64,000 bases of DNA from Escherichia coli (GTDB taxonomy: Bacteria > Pseudomonadota > Gammaproteobacteria > Enterobacterales > Enterobacteriaceae): the NCBI RefSeq assembly GCF_013315695.1, contig NZ_CP054353.1; one strand, given 5' to 3'. This document shows, in pieces, positions 27,696 to 52,212 of this stretch (position 1 is the first letter of the stretch; every line of letters starts with the position of its first letter). A program made the position numbers and the translations under genes. A model generated the notes under the pieces. The model made no database searches. It saw nothing but the letters and a program-made list of their open reading frames with translations, and was not told where the DNA came from.

Positions 27696-28619
27696 ATGAG
27701 AAAGACGGGCAACCGCCGCGAGCGTGGGGCAAAAACCACCATCGTCCGGCGGCAGATCAAAAAGAATCATGCCGGGCATCATGGCGGGGCGTGGAAGGTG
27801 GCGTTCGCCGACTTTACCCTGGCGATGATGGCGCTATTTATGACGCTGTGGATTGTCAACAGCGTCAGTAAATCCGAGCGTGAAAGCATTATCGCCGCGC
27901 TGCACGGGCAGTCGATTTTTAATGGTGGAGGGCTGTCGCCGTTAAATAAAATCAGCCCGTCTCATCCGCCAAAACCTGCCACCGTGGCGGTGCCGGAAGA
28001 GACGGAGAAAAAAGCGCGTGACGTCAATGAGAAAACGGCGCTGCTGAAGAAGAAATCCGCTACTGAGCTTGGCGAGCTGGCGACCAGTATCAACACTATT
28101 GCCCGTGATGCACATATGGAAGCGAATCTGGAGATGGAGATTGTTCCCCAGGGACTGCGCGTGCTGATTAAAGATGACCAGAACCGCAATATGTTTGAAC
28201 GCGGCAGCGCACAGATTATGCCGTTCTTTAAAACTTTGCTGGTGGAGTTAGCGCCGGTTTTTGATTCGCTCGACAATAAGATCATCATCACCGGGCATAC
28301 CGATGCGATGGCCTACAAAAACAATATCTACAACAACTGGAACCTTTCGGGTGACCGCGCGCTTTCGGCTCGTCGGGTGCTGGAAGAGGCAGGAATGCCG
28401 GAAGATAAAGTGATGCAGGTGAGCGCAATGGCGGACCAGATGCTGCTGGATGCCAAAAATCCGCAAAGCGCGGGCAACCGGCGCATTGAGATTATGGTGC
28501 TGACTAAAAGCGCGTCCGATACGCTGTATCAATACTTTGGTCAGCATGGGGATAAAGTGGTGCAGCCGCTGGTGCAAAAGCTGGATAAGCAGCAGGTACT
28601 TTCACAGCGAACGCGCTAG
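27696..28619 (+). CDS. lafU: Flagellar stator protein MotB family (LafU)
   Basis: ATG at 27696 immediately after the lafT stop; N-terminal TM helix and C-terminal OmpA-like peptidoglycan-binding motif (NWNLSGDRALSARRV). Confidence 0.85.
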   Translation: MRKTGNRRERGAKTTIVRRQIKKNHAGHHGGAWKVAFADFTLAMMALFMTLWIVNSVSKSERESIIAALHGQSIFNGGGLSPLNKISPSHPPKPATVAVPEETEKKARDVNEKTALLKKKSATELGELATSINTIARDAHMEANLEMEIVPQGLRVLIKDDQNRNMFERGSAQIMPFFKTLLVELAPVFDSLDNKIIITGHTDAMAYKNNIYNNWNLSGDRALSARRVLEEAGMPEDKVMQVSAMADQMLLDAKNPQSAGNRRIEIMVLTKSASDTLYQYFGQHGDKVVQPLVQKLDKQQVLSQRTR

Positions 28620-28657
28620 ATGCTGAATCTTTACGCATTTCTCAAACCCTGAAATCA

Positions 28658-28673
28658 CTGTATACTTTACCAG
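28658..28673 (+). promoter_or_regulatory. LexA (SOS) box upstream of dinB
   Basis: CTGTATACTTTACCAG matches CTGT-N8-ACAG, 17 nt upstream of the dinB start. Confidence 0.65.
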
Positions 28674-28689
28674 TGTTGAGAGGTGAGCA

Positions 28690-40783: not shown

Positions 40784-40859
40784 GCCGATATAGCTCAGTT
40801 GGTAGAGCAGCGCATTCGTAATGCGAAGGTCGTAGGTTCGACTCCTATTATCGGCACCA
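40784..40859 (+). tRNA. thrW: tRNA-Thr (anticodon CGU), thrW-like
   Basis: 76-nt GCCGATATAGCTCAGTTGGTAGAGCAGCGCATTCGTAATGCGAAGGTCGTAGGTTCGACTCCTATTATCGGCACCA; cloverleaf arms, CGT anticodon, encoded CCA. Confidence 0.9.
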
Positions 40860-41024: not shown

Positions 41025-42239
41025 GTGAAACTCAATGCCCGTCAAATAGACACAGCCAAGCCAAAAGAGAAGGCTTACAAGCTGGCCGATGGTGGCGGTT
41101 TGTATCTCTTGGTAAAACCTAATGGAGGTAAATACTGGCGACTTAAATATCGTGTAGCTGGTAAAGAGAAGCTATTGGCACTAGGTGTTTATCCTGAGGT
41201 TACTCTAGCCGATGCTCGGGCAAAACGTGAAGATGCGAAAAGAGGTATCGCTGGTGGTATCGAACCGATGGAAGCGAAACGAGAGGAAAAGATTGCCCGG
41301 GAAACGCAGTTAAACAACACCTTCAAAGATATTGCCCTTGAGTGGCACAGCAGCAAATTAAAAAAATGGTCTGCTGGTTATGCTTCAGACATCCTCGAAG
41401 CCTTCAACAAAGATGTGTTCCCTTACATTGGCAAAAAACCCATCGCCGAAATCAAACCACTTGAACTTCTGAATGTGCTGCGTCGCATCGAGGGGCGCGG
41501 TGCTACAGAAAAAGCCAAAAAAGTGAGGCAACGGTGCGGGGAAGTTTTCCGCTATGCAATAGTCACTGGTCGCGCAGAGTATAACCCTGCACCAGACCTT
41601 ACTAGCGCGATGCAAGGCCATGAATCTAATCATTACCCTTTCCTTACAGCCAAAGAATTACCTGATTTTTTCAAGGCATTGTCCAGTTACTCAGGAAGCG
41701 CATTGGTTGTTATGGCGGCTCGTCTACTGATTATCACCGGCTTGCGGACTGGCGAACTACGTGGCGCATTATGGGATGAAATTGATTTCAACAAGGCTAT
41801 CTGGGAGATACCCGCTTCACGTATGAAAATGCGGCGGCCTCATATTGTGCCATTGTCTGAGCAGGCTCTTTCGCTTATTGGGAAGATTAGAGAAATAACA
41901 GGCAATTACCCTCTTATGTTTCCCGGGCGCAATGATCCAAGGAAAACAATGAGCGAGGCCAGCATAAACCAAGTGTTTAAGCGCATTGGCTACGCTGGAC
42001 GTGTAACTGGTCATGGGTTCCGGCACACTATGAGTACGATTTTGCATGAGCAGGGCTATAACACTGCGTGGATAGAAACGCAGCTCGCTCACGTTGATAA
42101 GAACTCAATTCGTGGCACATACAACCATGCGCAATATCTGGATGGAAGGCGGGAGATGCTTCAATGGTATGCCGACTATATGGATTCTCTCGAGCATGGC
42201 GGAAATGTGGTGCATATGGTGTTTGAAAAACACGCATGA
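41025..42239 (+). CDS. int: Tyrosine site-specific integrase (P4-type)
   Basis: 404 aa, GTG start with GGAGG SD; N-terminal arm-binding-type region (GGGLYLLVKPNGGKYWRLKYR) and C-terminal catalytic R-H-R-Y region (HGFRHT ... RGTYNHAQY). Confidence 0.85.
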   Translation: MKLNARQIDTAKPKEKAYKLADGGGLYLLVKPNGGKYWRLKYRVAGKEKLLALGVYPEVTLADARAKREDAKRGIAGGIEPMEAKREEKIARETQLNNTFKDIALEWHSSKLKKWSAGYASDILEAFNKDVFPYIGKKPIAEIKPLELLNVLRRIEGRGATEKAKKVRQRCGEVFRYAIVTGRAEYNPAPDLTSAMQGHESNHYPFLTAKELPDFFKALSSYSGSALVVMAARLLIITGLRTGELRGALWDEIDFNKAIWEIPASRMKMRRPHIVPLSEQALSLIGKIREITGNYPLMFPGRNDPRKTMSEASINQVFKRIGYAGRVTGHGFRHTMSTILHEQGYNTAWIETQLAHVDKNSIRGTYNHAQYLDGRREMLQWYADYMDSLEHGGNVVHMVFEKHA

Positions 42240-47219: not shown

Positions 47220-47583
47220 AAATGCAGAAATGGCGCTTAGCTCCGCAATCGGAGAGCAGGTGGCAAAGATTGCTGGTGCTGTGTGGATTCATAACCTTCA
47301 TTCTACTGGTGAAGAGAAAATGGCAATTCAGACGCCAGAGGGACGCACCATTACTACATCTCTGAAGCCGTCAGATGTTTGTGATCTGATTTGCGCATTC
47401 ATGTACCCAGCAATGAGGACTGTCCACGGCGATAAGTGGAAACTTGCGACAACCGCTGAATTTGATATGTGGCTAAACAATGATGGCATGCTGACTGATT
47501 ACGGAATAACCAAGTGGCAGATGCTGGTTAGCCATATCGCAAACGCTATAGACCACGTGGGGTACGGTGATGCGAAACATTGA
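47212..47583 (+). CDS. Hypothetical protein
   Basis: 123 aa; overlaps the primase start. Confidence 0.35.
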   Translation: MRENAEMALSSAIGEQVAKIAGAVWIHNLHSTGEEKMAIQTPEGRTITTSLKPSDVCDLICAFMYPAMRTVHGDKWKLATTAEFDMWLNNDGMLTDYGITKWQMLVSHIANAIDHVGYGDAKH

Positions 47584-50326
47584 TCTTATCCGTCAGGTTA
47601 TCAGTGCGTCTGAAAACAACTGGCCTCATGTGCTGGGCTGCCTGAACATAAATGTCCCTGACTCTCCGCGCCGTCATGCTCCCTGCCCTGCATGTGGGGG
47701 CAAAGATCGATTCCGGTTCGATGACAACGGGCGCGGTAGCTTCATCTGTAATCAGTGCGGCGCTGGTGATGGGCTGGATTTAATTAAACGCGTAAATAAC
47801 TGCGACACAACAGAGGCGGCGCTTCTTGCCGCTGATGTTCTGGGTATTGATTACCGGACAACGGAAACACCAGAAGCCACCAGCCAGAAACGGGAACAAC
47901 TGGAAACCGAGCGCCAGCGACGCGAACAGGAGCGCCTGAAAAGGGCAGAGAAGGACGAACAACAAAGACGGGATACGTTTTCCCGTCAGTTTGATGACAT
48001 GCGCAGAAAGGCTGTAAACGGCAAATCTGATTATCTGGTTGCGAAAGGGGTAGGTGATTTTACATTCCCCGTGTTGCCCGATGGATCTCTGTTGCTGGCG
48101 CTGGTGGATAAATCCGGCGCAGTCACAGCAGCACAGACTATTACATCACATGGTGAAAAAAGACTCCTGACAGGTTCAGCAAAGCGGGGGGCATATCACG
48201 CCATAAACGCGCCAGAAACAACACAGAGCATCTTAATCGCAGAAGGGCTGGCAACGGCATTATCTGCCCATTTAATTCGTCCAGAGGCGCTGACAGTGGC
48301 GGCGATTGATGCCGGGAACCTGTTATATGTCGCCCAGGTACTGCGGGATAAATTTCCTTCAGCACAAATCATCATTGCTGCGGATAACGACCACAGCGAA
48401 GGAAGACAAAACACGGGGAGAATAGCAGCAGAAAAAGCAGCTTTATCTGTTTCTGGATGGGTGGCATTACCCCCGACAGATCACAAAGCAGACTGGAATG
48501 ATTACCACCAAAAACACGGCATTAAATGCGCCACAGAAGCGTTCAATAAGTCAATGTACCAACCACAGGGTAATGGCGTGAAACATGAGCCACAGACCAT
48601 TGAGGGAAGCGATTTTAAGGTTATGGATACCGACCCACTGAAACCAAGAATAGAAAGCCGCGAGGATGGTATTTATTGGGTATCTCCGAGAGCTGACAGC
48701 CAGAGTGGAGAAATCATCAATAACGAAAGCTGGTTATGTTCTCCGTTAAGCGTTATCGGTACTGGCAGAGACGATAAAGACCAGTATCTCATTCTTCGCT
48801 GGCTGTCGTTTGGTTCTGAAACGCCGACAACCGCTGCCATTCCACTGGCTGATATTGGTGAACGTGAAGGATGGCGCACACTTAAAGCTGGTGGGGTAAA
48901 TGTCACGACCAAAAGCAGCCTCAGAGCAATACTGGCAGACTGGCTACAACGCAGTGGCTCTCGTGAATTGTGGCGTGTTGCTCATGCCACTGGCTGGCAA
49001 TGCGGAGCGTACATCATGCCTGATGGGGAAATCATCGGAACACCTGAAAATCCTGTGCTGTTCAGCGGGAGAAGCTCAGCCGCAGCCGGATATACCGTCT
49101 CAGGGAGCGCGAAAAGCTGGCGTGATAACGTGGCGCGTCTGGCCTTTGGTAACTATTCAATGATGACCGGGATCGGCGCAGCACTGGCAGCGCCATTGAT
49201 TGGGCTGGTGGGCGCTGACGGGTTCGGCATTCATTTCTATGAGCAGTCGAGCGCAGGTAAGACCACCACGGCAAACGTGGCGAGCAGCTTATACGGCAAC
49301 CCTGATTTACTGCGGCTGACGTGGTACGGAACCGCGCTGGGGCTGGCAAATGAGGCCGCCGCCCACAATGACGGACTAATGCCGCTTGATGAAGTTGGTC
49401 AGGGCGCTGATCCTGTCAGCGTTTCACAGTCTGCCTATGCGTTATTTAACGGTGTAGGGAAACTGCAAGGCGCTAAAGATGGTGGAAACCGGGATCTAAA
49501 ACGCTGGCGTACAGTGGCAATCAGCACCGGAGAAATGGATTTAGAAACATTTATCGCTACTTCCGGGCGAAAAACCAAAGCCGGGCAACTGGTGCGACTG
49601 CTGAATATTCCGTTGAGTAAAGCAGTACGCTTTCACGATTACCAGAACGGAAAACAGCACGCAGACGCACTGAAAGACGCTTACCAGCATCACCACGGCG
49701 CGTCCGGGCGTGAGTGGATTAAATGGCTGGCAGACCACCAGCAACAGGCTATTAAAACCGTTCGTGACTGCGAAAGCAGATGGAGAAGCCTGATCCCATC
49801 CGATTATGGTGAGCAGGTTCACCGTGTAGCCGCGCGATTTGCCATTCTGGAGGCCGCATTGTTGTTAGGCGAGGTTGTAACAGGCTGGGATGCTCAGACA
49901 TGCCGTGATGCGATACAGCACAGCTATAACGCATGGTTGCGCGAGTTCGGCACAGGTAACAAAGAGCATCAGCAGATTATTGAACAAACGGAGGCATTTC
50001 TTAATGCCTATGGGCTTAGCCGTTTTGCACCATTTCCATACAGCCCGGCAGATTTGCCCATCAAAGATTTAGCCGGATACCGTCAGCGTGGAGAACATGA
50101 CGAAAGCCCAATGATTTTCTACACATTCCCGGCCACATTTGAAAAGGAGATCGCATGTGGTTTCAACGCAAAACAGTTTGCTGAAGTGTTGAAAAAAGCC
50201 GGGATGCTAACCCCACCAAACAGCGGTCGTGGATACCAAAGAAAATCACCACGTATTCAGGGACGACAAATAAACGTTTATGTACTCAATTACCAGCCAG
50301 GAGATTATAACTCATCTGAAGAATGA
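47567..50326 (+). CDS. Satellite-type DNA primase/helicase (zinc-finger + TOPRIM + D5-like NTPase)
   Basis: 919 aa; N-terminal CPACGG...CNQCG zinc finger, TOPRIM-like region (ILIAEGLATALS), Walker A SSAGKTT in the C-terminal half. Confidence 0.8.
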   Translation: MMRNIDLIRQVISASENNWPHVLGCLNINVPDSPRRHAPCPACGGKDRFRFDDNGRGSFICNQCGAGDGLDLIKRVNNCDTTEAALLAADVLGIDYRTTETPEATSQKREQLETERQRREQERLKRAEKDEQQRRDTFSRQFDDMRRKAVNGKSDYLVAKGVGDFTFPVLPDGSLLLALVDKSGAVTAAQTITSHGEKRLLTGSAKRGAYHAINAPETTQSILIAEGLATALSAHLIRPEALTVAAIDAGNLLYVAQVLRDKFPSAQIIIAADNDHSEGRQNTGRIAAEKAALSVSGWVALPPTDHKADWNDYHQKHGIKCATEAFNKSMYQPQGNGVKHEPQTIEGSDFKVMDTDPLKPRIESREDGIYWVSPRADSQSGEIINNESWLCSPLSVIGTGRDDKDQYLILRWLSFGSETPTTAAIPLADIGEREGWRTLKAGGVNVTTKSSLRAILADWLQRSGSRELWRVAHATGWQCGAYIMPDGEIIGTPENPVLFSGRSSAAAGYTVSGSAKSWRDNVARLAFGNYSMMTGIGAALAAPLIGLVGADGFGIHFYEQSSAGKTTTANVASSLYGNPDLLRLTWYGTALGLANEAAAHNDGLMPLDEVGQGADPVSVSQSAYALFNGVGKLQGAKDGGNRDLKRWRTVAISTGEMDLETFIATSGRKTKAGQLVRLLNIPLSKAVRFHDYQNGKQHADALKDAYQHHHGASGREWIKWLADHQQQAIKTVRDCESRWRSLIPSDYGEQVHRVAARFAILEAALLLGEVVTGWDAQTCRDAIQHSYNAWLREFGTGNKEHQQIIEQTEAFLNAYGLSRFAPFPYSPADLPIKDLAGYRQRGEHDESPMIFYTFPATFEKEIACGFNAKQFAEVLKKAGMLTPPNSGRGYQRKSPRIQGRQINVYVLNYQPGDYNSSEE

Positions 50327-50350
50327 GCTTCTTCATGTGCGTAGAAAAGG

Positions 50351-50456
50351 TGTTGGTTCAGTTGGTTCAATTTGTAAAGAGTATTGTTTTATAAGGATTT
50401 TATTCTTTTTATTGAACCAACACTGAACCAACAACACGGTATTTTGAACCAACACA
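50351..50456. promoter_or_regulatory. Candidate replication origin: inverted clusters of TGAACCAAC iterons flanking an AT-rich spacer
   Basis: GTTGGTTCAGTTGGTTCAA (50352-50370) then ~42 bp AT-rich, then TGAACCAACACTGAACCAACAA and TGAACCAACACA (50413-50456); begins 25 bp after the primase stop. Confidence 0.5.
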
Positions 50457-50774
50457 ATGTGACTGAATTGATGCGCACAACACCTGGCTGGCATCAGAGA
50501 GTGTTTTACGAGACTTTCGTAAAATCCTGTGTACAAGGGCGTGACGTTTTTGAAAGTGAGCACTACGAAATTTTCGTAGTTCAGAAAACAGCCTCTGAGA
50601 AGTTGTTATGCCTGTTCAGCAAACCATCCGCATAGCTGATCGCGAATCAAATTACCAATGGAGCCAGAAGCAAGGGCAGAACTGAAAAGCGCCTGCCGTG
50701 AAGAGTAATGCGACACCATAAATATAGTTTTTAGAGTCCATAAAAAACCTGTCAAAACCTGACACACAGAACGA

Positions 50775-50806
50775 TGCCACCAGCTACTGAGCGGTGGCAT
50801 TTTTTT
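50775..50806 (+). terminator. Rho-independent terminator
   Basis: Hairpin TGCCACC-AGCTACTGAGC-GGTGGCA followed by TTTTTTT. Confidence 0.6.
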
Positions 50807-50901
50807 GTGCTATTTGTTTCATATTTTGCAATTACGATGATGAATATTGCGATTTGTGAAACTATAATAACTGTTGTTTTATACAGTTCTAAGGGGGCGT
50901 T

Positions 50902-51063
50902 ATGGCTATTTCAGTAAAGCCGGTATTGATAAGTGAGAAGCAAATGGAAGCGATAAAGAAAATTCAGGAAGAGCAGCGTAAAAAATCAGGAATTGGAGTA
51001 GCGCCAACTCTGCATGAAATTGCACGAGGGTTAATAGATAAGGCGCTGGCAGGCTGTATGTGA
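50902..51063 (+). CDS. Small ORF (53 aa) not in the ORF track; possible small DNA-binding protein
   Basis: ATG at 50902 with AAGGGGG SD 7 nt upstream; charged helical composition. Confidence 0.35.
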   Translation: MAISVKPVLISEKQMEAIKKIQEEQRKKSGIGVAPTLHEIARGLIDKALAGCM

Positions 51064-51079
51064 AAATGGATGGCATCGC

Positions 51080-51541
51080 ATGGAACTAAAATTTATTGAT
51101 AACCCTGTGCGATTACAGGCCTTTCTTAACGAGCCAGGCAATACCGAAAATATTGTTGAGCCGGGGCACACGTACTACATCAAGCCTGATGCGGTATATC
51201 TCGGCATCTACGAAGGATTAGTGCTGGCTGGCGTTCATGAAGTGCGTAACTTCTGGCATAGCGTTGTTGAATGCCATGCGGTGTACGACCCCGGATTCCG
51301 TGGTGAATATGCACTGCAAGGACATCGATTATTCTGCAAATGGCTTCTCGAAAACTCACCATTCCTTAACAGCATTACCATGGTTCCTGACACCACGAAA
51401 TACGGACGGGCAATTATCCGTTTGCTTGGCGCTACCCGTGTTGGTCATCTTGATGATGCTTATATCAGATGTGGTAAACCCGTCGGCGTAACGCTTTATC
51501 AGTTAACTCGGCAACAATATAAGGAATTCAGCGAATGTTAA
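51080..51541 (+). CDS. Hypothetical protein (candidate virion-associated protein)
   Basis: 153 aa; first of three tightly coupled same-strand genes. Confidence 0.4.
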   Translation: MELKFIDNPVRLQAFLNEPGNTENIVEPGHTYYIKPDAVYLGIYEGLVLAGVHEVRNFWHSVVECHAVYDPGFRGEYALQGHRLFCKWLLENSPFLNSITMVPDTTKYGRAIIRLLGATRVGHLDDAYIRCGKPVGVTLYQLTRQQYKEFSEC

Positions 51542-52212
51542 TTACCCATATAGCTTATAAACATCTCAATCGTGCCGTATACGAAAAAGGCGGTGATGGT
51601 GGTGCCTCTAAAGCTCAGGCGAAGGCCCAGCAGCAGGCAATTGATTTGCAGCGCGAGCAGTGGAATACGGTGATGAATAATCTCAAGCCGTATGCAGAAG
51701 TCGGATTGCCTGCTTTACAACAACTACAAGGACTGATGACTCTGGAAGGGCAGAATAAAGCCGCGAATGATTTCTTTGGTTCTGGTTTATATAAAACACA
51801 GGCAGATCAGGCCCGTTATCAGAACCTTGTCTCAGCAGAAGCTACCGGGGGGCTTGGCTCAACAGCTACCAGTAACCAGTTATCTTCCATTGCGCCCATG
51901 CTTTATAACAATTGGCTCAGTGGGCAAATGCAAAATTATGGAAACCTGCTAAATGTCGGGATGAATGCGGCATCAGGGCAGGCAACAGCAGGGCAAAACT
52001 ACGCCAATAATACCGGACAACTCTTGCAGGGGCTTGGCGCTATTCGTGCAGGTCAGGCGCAGCAGCCATCCAGTCTTGCGCGTGGTATTGGTGGGGCGGC
52101 ATCAGGCGCTTTAGCGGGTGCGCAACTTGGTTCCGTTGTTCCGGGTATAGGTAATGTCGCCGGGGCTATTGGTGGTGGGCTTATTGGTCTTGTTGGGGGG
52201 CTTGGATTCTAA
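51535..52212 (+). CDS. Hypothetical protein with Gly-rich hydrophobic C-terminus (candidate phage ejection/internal protein)
   Basis: 225 aa; Gln/Asn-rich middle, C-terminal GxxxG-rich tail (GIGNVAGAIGGGLIGLVGGLGF). Confidence 0.4.
   Translation: MLITHIAYKHLNRAVYEKGGDGGASKAQAKAQQQAIDLQREQWNTVMNNLKPYAEVGLPALQQLQGLMTLEGQNKAANDFFGSGLYKTQADQARYQNLVSAEATGGLGSTATSNQLSSIAPMLYNNWLSGQMQNYGNLLNVGMNAASGQATAGQNYANNTGQLLQGLGAIRAGQAQQPSSLARGIGGAASGALAGAQLGSVVPGIGNVAGAIGGGLIGLVGGLGF

Follow-up and report, generated by a model that had tools for sequence, protein, structure and literature searches.

Small ribbon-helix-helix (RHH) regulators that head operons are a familiar kind of protein. RHH proteins are obligate dimers, and the S/T/N residue of the G-x-S/T/N turn between helix A and helix B caps helix B. 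Short, repeated palindromic sites that flank or enter the core promoter are the targets of RHH autoregulators, among them Arc, Mnt, CopG, Omega and TraM; the RHH antitoxins bind their toxins with their tails, and the RHH proteins TraM and TraY act at oriT of F-like plasmids.

When considering the possibility that a phage satellite employs such a protein, the described organization of PICIs is the natural starting point. These islands have been reported to contain a "new accessory region adjacent to pri" (He et al., Nat Commun 2024, PMC11364771), and those of E. coli encode Rpp (redirecting phage packaging) proteins, which consist of 144-153 residues and bind the TerS of the helper (PMC6739421). 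Of immediate relevance is EcCIMP1, an experimentally tractable island of E. coli MP1. According to excerpts of the report on this island (Pick, Stadel and Raivio, ISME J 2025, PMC11773190), its att site is the tRNA-Thr gene between proA and yagU, with the core TCCTATTATC; its excision and transfer depend on the helper phage vB_EcoP_Kapi1; and its DUF2824 and DNA-transfer genes are discussed as packaging candidates. The small gene that is the subject of this analysis is not singled out in the excerpts of the EcCIMP1 report (PMC11773190) or in those that describe the PICI accessory region (PMC11364771).

The stretch of DNA analyzed here, hereinafter the window, comprises 64,000 nt of an E. coli contig (NZ_CP054353.1) and contains an element that is a truncated copy of an EcCIMP1-type PICI, as can be judged from the tRNA-Thr integrase, the core TCCTATTATC, the AlpA, antirepressor, Ash and DUF927 primase genes, and the absence of capsid and lysis genes. 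The integration site, a tRNA-Thr gene with the anticodon CGT (40784..40859, + strand), carries the attL core at 40843-40852 and is followed by the tyrosine integrase (41025..42239, +), an AlpA-like HTH protein, an AntA/B antirepressor, Ash and the DUF927/Toprim primase, in this order. The conserved replication module ends with this primase-helicase (zinc ribbon, Toprim, DUF927; 47567..50326, +), and the array of five GTTGGTTCA-core repeats, direct and inverted, that lies just after it (50350..50455) is presumed to be the PICI replication origin. The predicted RHH gene, 53 codons long (50902..51063, +), precedes three genes related to ejection functions of phage P22: a DUF2824 protein homologous to gp14 (51080..51541, +), which is the first cargo gene and starts 16 nt after the RHH stop codon, a homologue of the ejection protein gp7 (51535..52212, +), and a gp20-like ejection protein (Inj_translocase; 52212..53630, +), whose 100%-identical RefSeq match is annotated as a frameshifted pseudogene. 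Inside the DUF2824 gene, positions 51104-51119 resemble a terminator, a match that was dismissed as due to chance.

The island shares with EcCIMP1 the att site, the backbone genes, the 53-aa protein and the DUF2824/DNA-transfer genes; in the E. coli MP1 genome, the identical protein (WP_001018524.1) is encoded between the primase and DUF2824 genes. It differs from EcCIMP1 in being truncated by an IS1 element (53641..54338, -) that abuts the gp20-like gene, so that it lacks attR and the gp16-type gene. The att core occurs just once in the window; hence this copy of the island has lost its right end and is probably immobile. A second IS1 (57144-57841) truncates ecpC, and the two IS1 copies bracket ykgR-ykgM-ykgO.

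The position of the small gene corresponds to the accessory region adjacent to pri, as this region is described in the excerpts of the PICI survey (PMC11364771). The reading frame, taken from the sequence and the list of ORFs, begins with ATG at 50902 and ends with TGA at 51061-51063. The Shine-Dalgarno motif AAGGGGG (50891-50897, +) is separated from the ATG by 4 nt (cgtt), an acceptable distance, in accord with the original prediction that this motif is correctly spaced. In the same prediction, the ORF was considered to be unannotated; this was incorrect because, in all E. coli genomes inspected, RefSeq/PGAP already lists the product, as the hypothetical protein WP_001018524.1. The 12 kb around the gene are overlapped by 130 ORFs of at least 30 aa, and, since ORFs of such size are common by chance, the case for the gene rests on the comparison with its relatives.

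Of the 5426 complete E. coli genomes, about 500 carry the gene. A word-indexed protein search detected 41 relatives, in Escherichia, Citrobacter, Serratia, Klebsiella and Salmonella, and an exhaustive profile search yielded 60 clusters at 50% identity, nearly all with proteins of 50-90 residues. For the comparison of loci, we used 59 of them, from E. coli, Klebsiella, Citrobacter, Serratia and metagenomes, with the DNA taken from E. coli genomes, assemblies and IMG/VR, the last of these sources being biased towards islands with phage-like genes (individual loci are denoted below by L numbers). Conservation of the frame in related elements had been named beforehand as a check on the ORF, and both the open frame and the Shine-Dalgarno site proved to be intact in all 59. 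Among the 45 distinct DNA alleles, the median dN/dS, calculated from 405 usable pairs, was 0.16; most of the synonymous sites have reached saturation, and the proteins are still 60-87% identical. The window copy, for example, differs from that in L019 by 26 synonymous and 8 non-synonymous substitutions. These comparisons show that the 53-aa ORF is a real gene under purifying selection. The reading in which it is a chance frame, or the shadow of a 56-aa ORF on the opposite strand (50906..51076), could draw on the small size of the ORF, with many others of such size arising by chance, and on the lack of a family match; we regard it as refuted by the strong purifying selection on the + frame amid saturated synonymous change, by the retention of the start codon and the Shine-Dalgarno site at 59 loci from several genera, and by the confident AF2 model of the product (see below). 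The minus-strand ORF was, accordingly, rejected as the gene: because purifying selection acts on the + frame, it is the ORF on the minus strand that is the shadow.

What kind of protein does this gene encode? The product was originally described as highly charged and helical. Indeed, 15 of the 53 residues (28%) are charged, with a net charge of +3 and a concentration of charges in helix 1, but the protein is not just helical, as its N-terminal strand pairs in the modeled dimer. The predicted layout consists of a strand (residues 5-11), a helix (12-28), a loop (29-36) and a second helix (37-52), and the AF2 model of the monomer (pLDDT 85.5) shows an extended N-terminus followed by two helices. 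Since RHH proteins are obligate dimers, two copies of the protein were modeled together, joined by a flexible linker, with an alignment in which the homologues were concatenated likewise. In the resulting model, the only beta strands are residues 5-11 of the two copies, which pair into an antiparallel ribbon, and the protein has the beta-alpha-alpha topology, in about 45-55 residues, that characterizes the RHH superfamily. The fold prediction that had been proposed as a further check thus gives an RHH fold. The closest structural matches of the model are TraM and TraY, and the matches also include ParD-type antitoxins and CopG/Omega. The N-terminal strand, paired in the modeled dimer, is presumed to be the DNA-reading element.

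The family alignment starts with a basic N-terminus and K-P-V-L-L, continues with the charged helix E-Q-x-x-A-L-x-x-I-Q-E-x-E-R-x-x-S and, in the C-terminal half, with the loop G-x-A-P-S/T and I-H-x-I-A-R-x-L-x-D-K-A-L. Within the loop, no less than 90% of 35 sequences have G32, which is thus nearly invariant, and position 36, the last before helix B, is commonly S/T. The spacing of the inter-helix G and T, G-V-A-P-T in an 8-residue loop, departs from the canonical RHH turn, G-x-S/T/N. The strand S-V-K-P-V-L-I-S is hydrophobic to an extent unusual for a DNA-reading ribbon, the only likely-looking DNA contacts in the predicted ribbon being K/R6 and the basic residues of the N-terminus. Neither the 53-aa protein nor 35 of its relatives matched a family in Pfam, NCBIfam, PHROGs or PADLOC; sequence and profile searches of the PDB gave chance matches only, with no RHH protein among them; and hhalign against the N-terminus of F TraM returned the expected register with a probability of 2.9%, which is not significant. 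Thus, the RHH fold is well supported as a prediction, and sequence-level homology to RHH families is not; the best reading is that the protein represents a new RHH family, absent from current databases.

The second line of evidence comes from the genes that follow. The 53-aa gene was originally placed ahead of a three-gene module. It is, indeed, the first gene of the operon, with its own conserved promoter and a terminator upstream; however, it is part of the satellite backbone, not of the P22 gp14-gp7-gp20 module. Among E. coli records, 189 matched the query at no less than 99% and 255 over at least 80% of its length, through the ORF into the gp14-gp7 region; in other records, the match ends at window position 51050, and anchored comparison between elements shows that identity falls to random exactly after codon 50 (...DKALA). 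At the 59 loci, the gene comes after the primase, usually together with SSB and sometimes with ProQ or PerC, and it stands, with its promoter, in front of no fewer than ten different cassettes. These comprise gp14-gp7-gp20 with a gp16-type or SLT-domain protein after them; gp20-gp16; a 66-aa protein and, after it, three large proteins, of which the first has an SLT domain; a 111-aa protein and then a tape-measure-like protein of about 1000 aa; an SLT-domain tape measure, then a Dit-like protein, a hub and a gpV-type spike; a hub together with a spike-like protein; a protein of 609 aa that resembles tape measures and transglycosylases; two TerS-like proteins, with the RHH gene directly before them (L008); a zinc-protease-like protein and PerC; and cargo of unknown kind. 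Nearly all fillings of this slot are virion DNA-delivery, tail-tip or packaging genes.

In satellites such as L006, L007, L019, L029, L030, L049, L058, L060 and L061, among others, virion DNA-delivery modules directly follow the RHH gene; integrase, AlpA, primase and SSB are present in these elements, and no capsid genes were detected among the proteins scanned. In some E. coli islands (L002 10376-11047 and L004 7348-7986), the virion genes are replaced by a protein of 212-223 aa with weak similarity to zinc metalloproteases (M41-like), which has no PHROG or PADLOC match and is accompanied by a PerC-family regulator. In L006, a Rap1a/Tai-family immunity protein (28293-28676) is encoded after the SLT cassette, and a Tlde1-domain, type VI effector-like gene is divergent to a distant RHH homologue in L011 (697-1056) and L012 (428-754); these neighbors hint that some cassettes may involve cell-wall-active proteins that need immunity. 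Two metagenomic homologues are located next to genes for SLT-domain virion proteins, one within a phage-like structural gene cluster (L010) and the other on a 1.6-kb contig (L013). A tblastn search of 50,697 phage records with two family members found no homologue.

In most of the other cassettes, the gene that comes next begins before the RHH frame has ended (at -3, -7 or -10), compared with the distance of 16 nt in the window; such overlaps point to an operon with translational coupling. The last 3-14 codons of the RHH gene vary with the type of the cassette, as became apparent when the window (51040-51063) was compared with the 3' ends in L002, L003, L006, L029, L030, L049 and L059: the tails include AGCM, AYTLTGRG, ASLASEGA, QQHLG, ASLSNECMPDGVCS, ATISAETATRLQE and ASLSDGAKV, among others. 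This co-variation implies a recombination junction inside the gene, at the DKAL(A) codons. A derivation of the P22 genes from the debris of a neighboring prophage was judged less likely given the precise junction inside the RHH gene, because this junction recurs with intact, often overlapping operons and with many cassette types.

The one-to-one correspondence between the residues after DKAL and the cassette type, the frequent translational coupling to the next gene, and the presence of ParD-type antitoxins among the fold matches are also what would be expected of an adaptor or chaperone for the cargo proteins, whose variable C-terminal tail would bind the first product of the cassette and may couple the cargo level to transcription. 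We consider such a function very unlikely. The junction at codon 50 fully explains the co-variation; the tail encoded in the window has only four residues (GCM after A50), not enough to form a binding module; and the cargoes are structurally unrelated. Nor is there any toxin-like gene after the ORF: the downstream genes (DUF2824, P22_gp7, Inj_translocase, SLT, tape measure, hub, TerS) include no toxin and have no PADLOC match. Identification of the protein as a type II antitoxin was rejected on the same grounds, the downstream genes being those of virion proteins. CopG, Omega and ParD-type proteins are fold matches that are likewise encoded by the first genes of operons, usually autoregulated via short repeated sites; unlike in these systems, no toxin, partition or replication-initiator gene is found downstream of the 53-aa gene, and its product has no Pfam RHH match.

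Compared with the closest structural matches, the N-terminal domain of TraM (F, pED208) and TraY, which are DNA-binding RHH proteins of conjugative relaxosomes, the 53-aa protein has no significant sequence similarity to TraM and lacks its C-terminal tetramerization domain, its candidate sites (see below) are ATTGCAAT-like rather than TraM sbm sites, and its gene belongs to a phage satellite rather than to a plasmid transfer region. The Arc and Mnt repressors of the P22 immI region also show no sequence similarity to it, and their ribbons are polar whereas that of the 53-aa protein is hydrophobic; Arc is encoded in immI after gene 16, whereas the gene considered here precedes gp14 in a satellite. 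Rpp and, by prediction, the 53-aa protein are both PICI-encoded DNA-binding dimers from the part of the island concerned with exploitation of the helper; the two are, however, unrelated in size and sequence and differ in fold, and identity with Rpp was rejected on size (53 aa versus 144-153 residues).

The resemblance to TraM and TraY raises the possibility that the protein serves in the processing of island DNA and not in transcription, marking the pac site or the origin and recruiting the terminase or the replication proteins of the helper in the way TraM and TraY act at oriT. About 450 nt separate the gene from the iteron origin, and, in one relative (L008), it is directly followed by the two TerS-like genes; moreover, EcCIMP1-type islands have no recognizable TerS or Rpp, and their packaging by the P22-like Kapi1 is left unexplained in the excerpts of the EcCIMP1 report (PMC11773190). 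We nevertheless regard this possibility as unlikely: the resemblance in fold is generic to RHH proteins, the conserved words upstream of the gene sit on a promoter rather than on a demonstrated pac site, and islands whose cargoes suggest widely differing types of helper all retain the gene, which makes a helper-specific contact with the terminase unlikely.

Turning to the upstream DNA, the gene appears to be insulated from the primase/ori transcription unit by an intrinsic-terminator-like hairpin with a T-run (50783..50806, +); analogous hairpins precede the gene in L019, L022 and L059. The roughly 450 nt from the origin repeats to this terminator (50326-50780) contain only short, unconserved-looking ORFs, among them a 64-aa ORF on the minus strand (50606-50800), and a 15-nt near-palindrome present at both 50507 and 50564. 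When 50200-51300 was scanned against Rfam, the only matches were sub-threshold ones to microRNA models, on the iteron hairpins. Downstream of the terminator, a putative promoter is formed by a consensus -10 hexamer, TATAAT (50863..50868, +), which is kept in an alignment of 21 upstream regions, and a weak -35 element, ATGAAT (50840-50845, +); because of this weakness, the promoter was not called by a strict two-hexamer sigma-70 scan. Two candidate operator sites accompany it: TTTGCAAT (50825..50832), with one mismatch to the palindrome ATTGCAAT, and the palindrome-like ATTGCGAT (50846..50853), which is located 21 bp downstream of the first site, between the -35 and -10 elements. Both fall within an imperfect inverted repeat, GTTTCATATTTTGCAAT / ATTGCGATTTGTGAAAC (50816..50862, with the arms at 50816-50832 and 50846-50862), which spans the -35 region and holds the conserved words TTTCAT and GTGAAA.

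The same arrangement recurs in 21 divergent upstream regions, which share, in this order, TTTCAT (50817-50822 in the window), (A/T)TTGCAAT, about 13 nt, ATGATCATTTCATT, then (G/A)TG(A/C)AA(T/C), directly followed by TATAAT, and the Shine-Dalgarno region; the window copy of the word immediately before TATAAT is TGTGAAAC (50855-50862). In a representative set of 16 upstream regions, most of which cannot be aligned with one another, 13 contain TGCAA/TTGCA, where shuffled sequences give an expectation of 2.3, and eight contain AATTGCA (0.4 expected), counts that partly reflect common ancestry because the regions are related by descent. The motif prefers two positions upstream of the start codon, one at a distance of about 70-75 nt and the other, which abuts the -10 element, at about 39-45 nt. 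Across the 64-kb window, the ATTGCAAT motif is not enriched (28 matches versus 45 expected), and its sole closely paired occurrence is at the promoter of the 53-aa gene. The L010 and L013 homologues have no ATTGCAAT-type motifs; in L010 (7185-7296), the ribosome-binding site of the homologue is found within a hairpin (tttcctcctg...caggaggaaa) that could sequester it.

Taken together, the predicted fold, the conserved promoter and the exchange of cargo make it somewhat more probable than not, in our estimate, that the gene encodes a regulator, possibly an autoregulator, from a new RHH family and serves as the leader gene of the PICI accessory operon, with its coding sequence doubling as the left arm for exchange. 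In this scenario, the gene would head the variable accessory operon of the island, after the primase, the iteron origin and the terminator. It would do so together with its own promoter, in which the -10 is of the consensus type and the -35 weak, and the ATTGCAAT-type palindromes are found at about -46 and in the -35/-10 interval. The protein would dimerize through its N-terminal strand and bind DNA, and a dimer, or a dimer of dimers, on the candidate palindromes would set its own expression along with that of the co-transcribed cargo, which in the window comprises the P22-type gp14-gp7-gp20 ejection genes. DNA binding, the role of these palindromes as the operator and a transcription start near 50875 are inferred, and, with regard to direction, repression appears more likely because one of the candidate sites is within the core promoter. 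For exchange of the cargo cassettes, the left homology arm would be provided by the first 150 nt of the gene, which are conserved.

The strongest argument for the regulatory role is that the gene is constant and the cargoes are structurally unrelated: a constant gene and promoter in front of such cargoes fit a cargo-independent role, that is, control of transcription, better than that of a cargo-specific partner. Against a regulator count the hydrophobic ribbon, the long loop, the lack of a sequence match and the L010 and L013 homologues that have no motifs, the atypical ribbon being among the strongest of these arguments; the conserved upstream words could instead be sites for AlpA, PerC or a host protein. 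That the gene is real and that its product is an RHH-fold dimer are much more secure conclusions than that it regulates the downstream genes, as originally proposed. In another rival reading, the protein would act in trans, on promoters of the helper, so as to interfere with the late genes or retime them as part of superinfection immunity. EcCIMP1 contributes to immunity against Kapi1, with the responsible gene not pinned down in the excerpts of that report (PMC11773190), and the region next to pri is a known immune hotspot of PICIs, as stated in the excerpted survey (PMC11364771). We hold an action on the helper to be less probable still than an adaptor function, given that neither a homologue nor a matching context was found in the phage records searched, that PADLOC gave no match, and that the conserved sites lie in the promoter of the island itself.

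A protein so far listed as hypothetical, which roughly every eleventh complete E. coli genome encodes, receives a name and a testable role, and the same protein is present in EcCIMP1. The context appears to be more interesting than the regulator itself: a fixed promoter-regulator unit is positioned before interchangeable injection modules in satellites that are otherwise devoid of structural genes. It is possible, although we put this forward only tentatively and see it as rather doubtful, that a widespread group of PICI-like satellites of Enterobacterales has, in the RHH gene with its promoter, a conserved platform for expression and recombination which serves to swap in virion DNA-delivery modules. 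The RHH protein would then time the expression of the swapped-in modules, be they P22-type ejection proteins, SLT internal proteins or sets of tape measure, Dit, hub and spike, and, were this the case, the satellites would re-equip or sabotage the injection apparatus of the helper particle. In the literature searched, we found only a passing mention of DNA-delivery modules in such satellites, for EcCIMP1 (PMC11773190). With nearly all cargoes being DNA-injection, tail-tip or packaging parts, the islands seem to follow a satellite strategy that has received little attention so far. If the 53-aa protein does control the accessory operon, it would be the switch for the genes by which such satellites interact with the virions of their helpers, and the promoter, the regulator and the recombination arm together would provide a handle to study or engineer this region.
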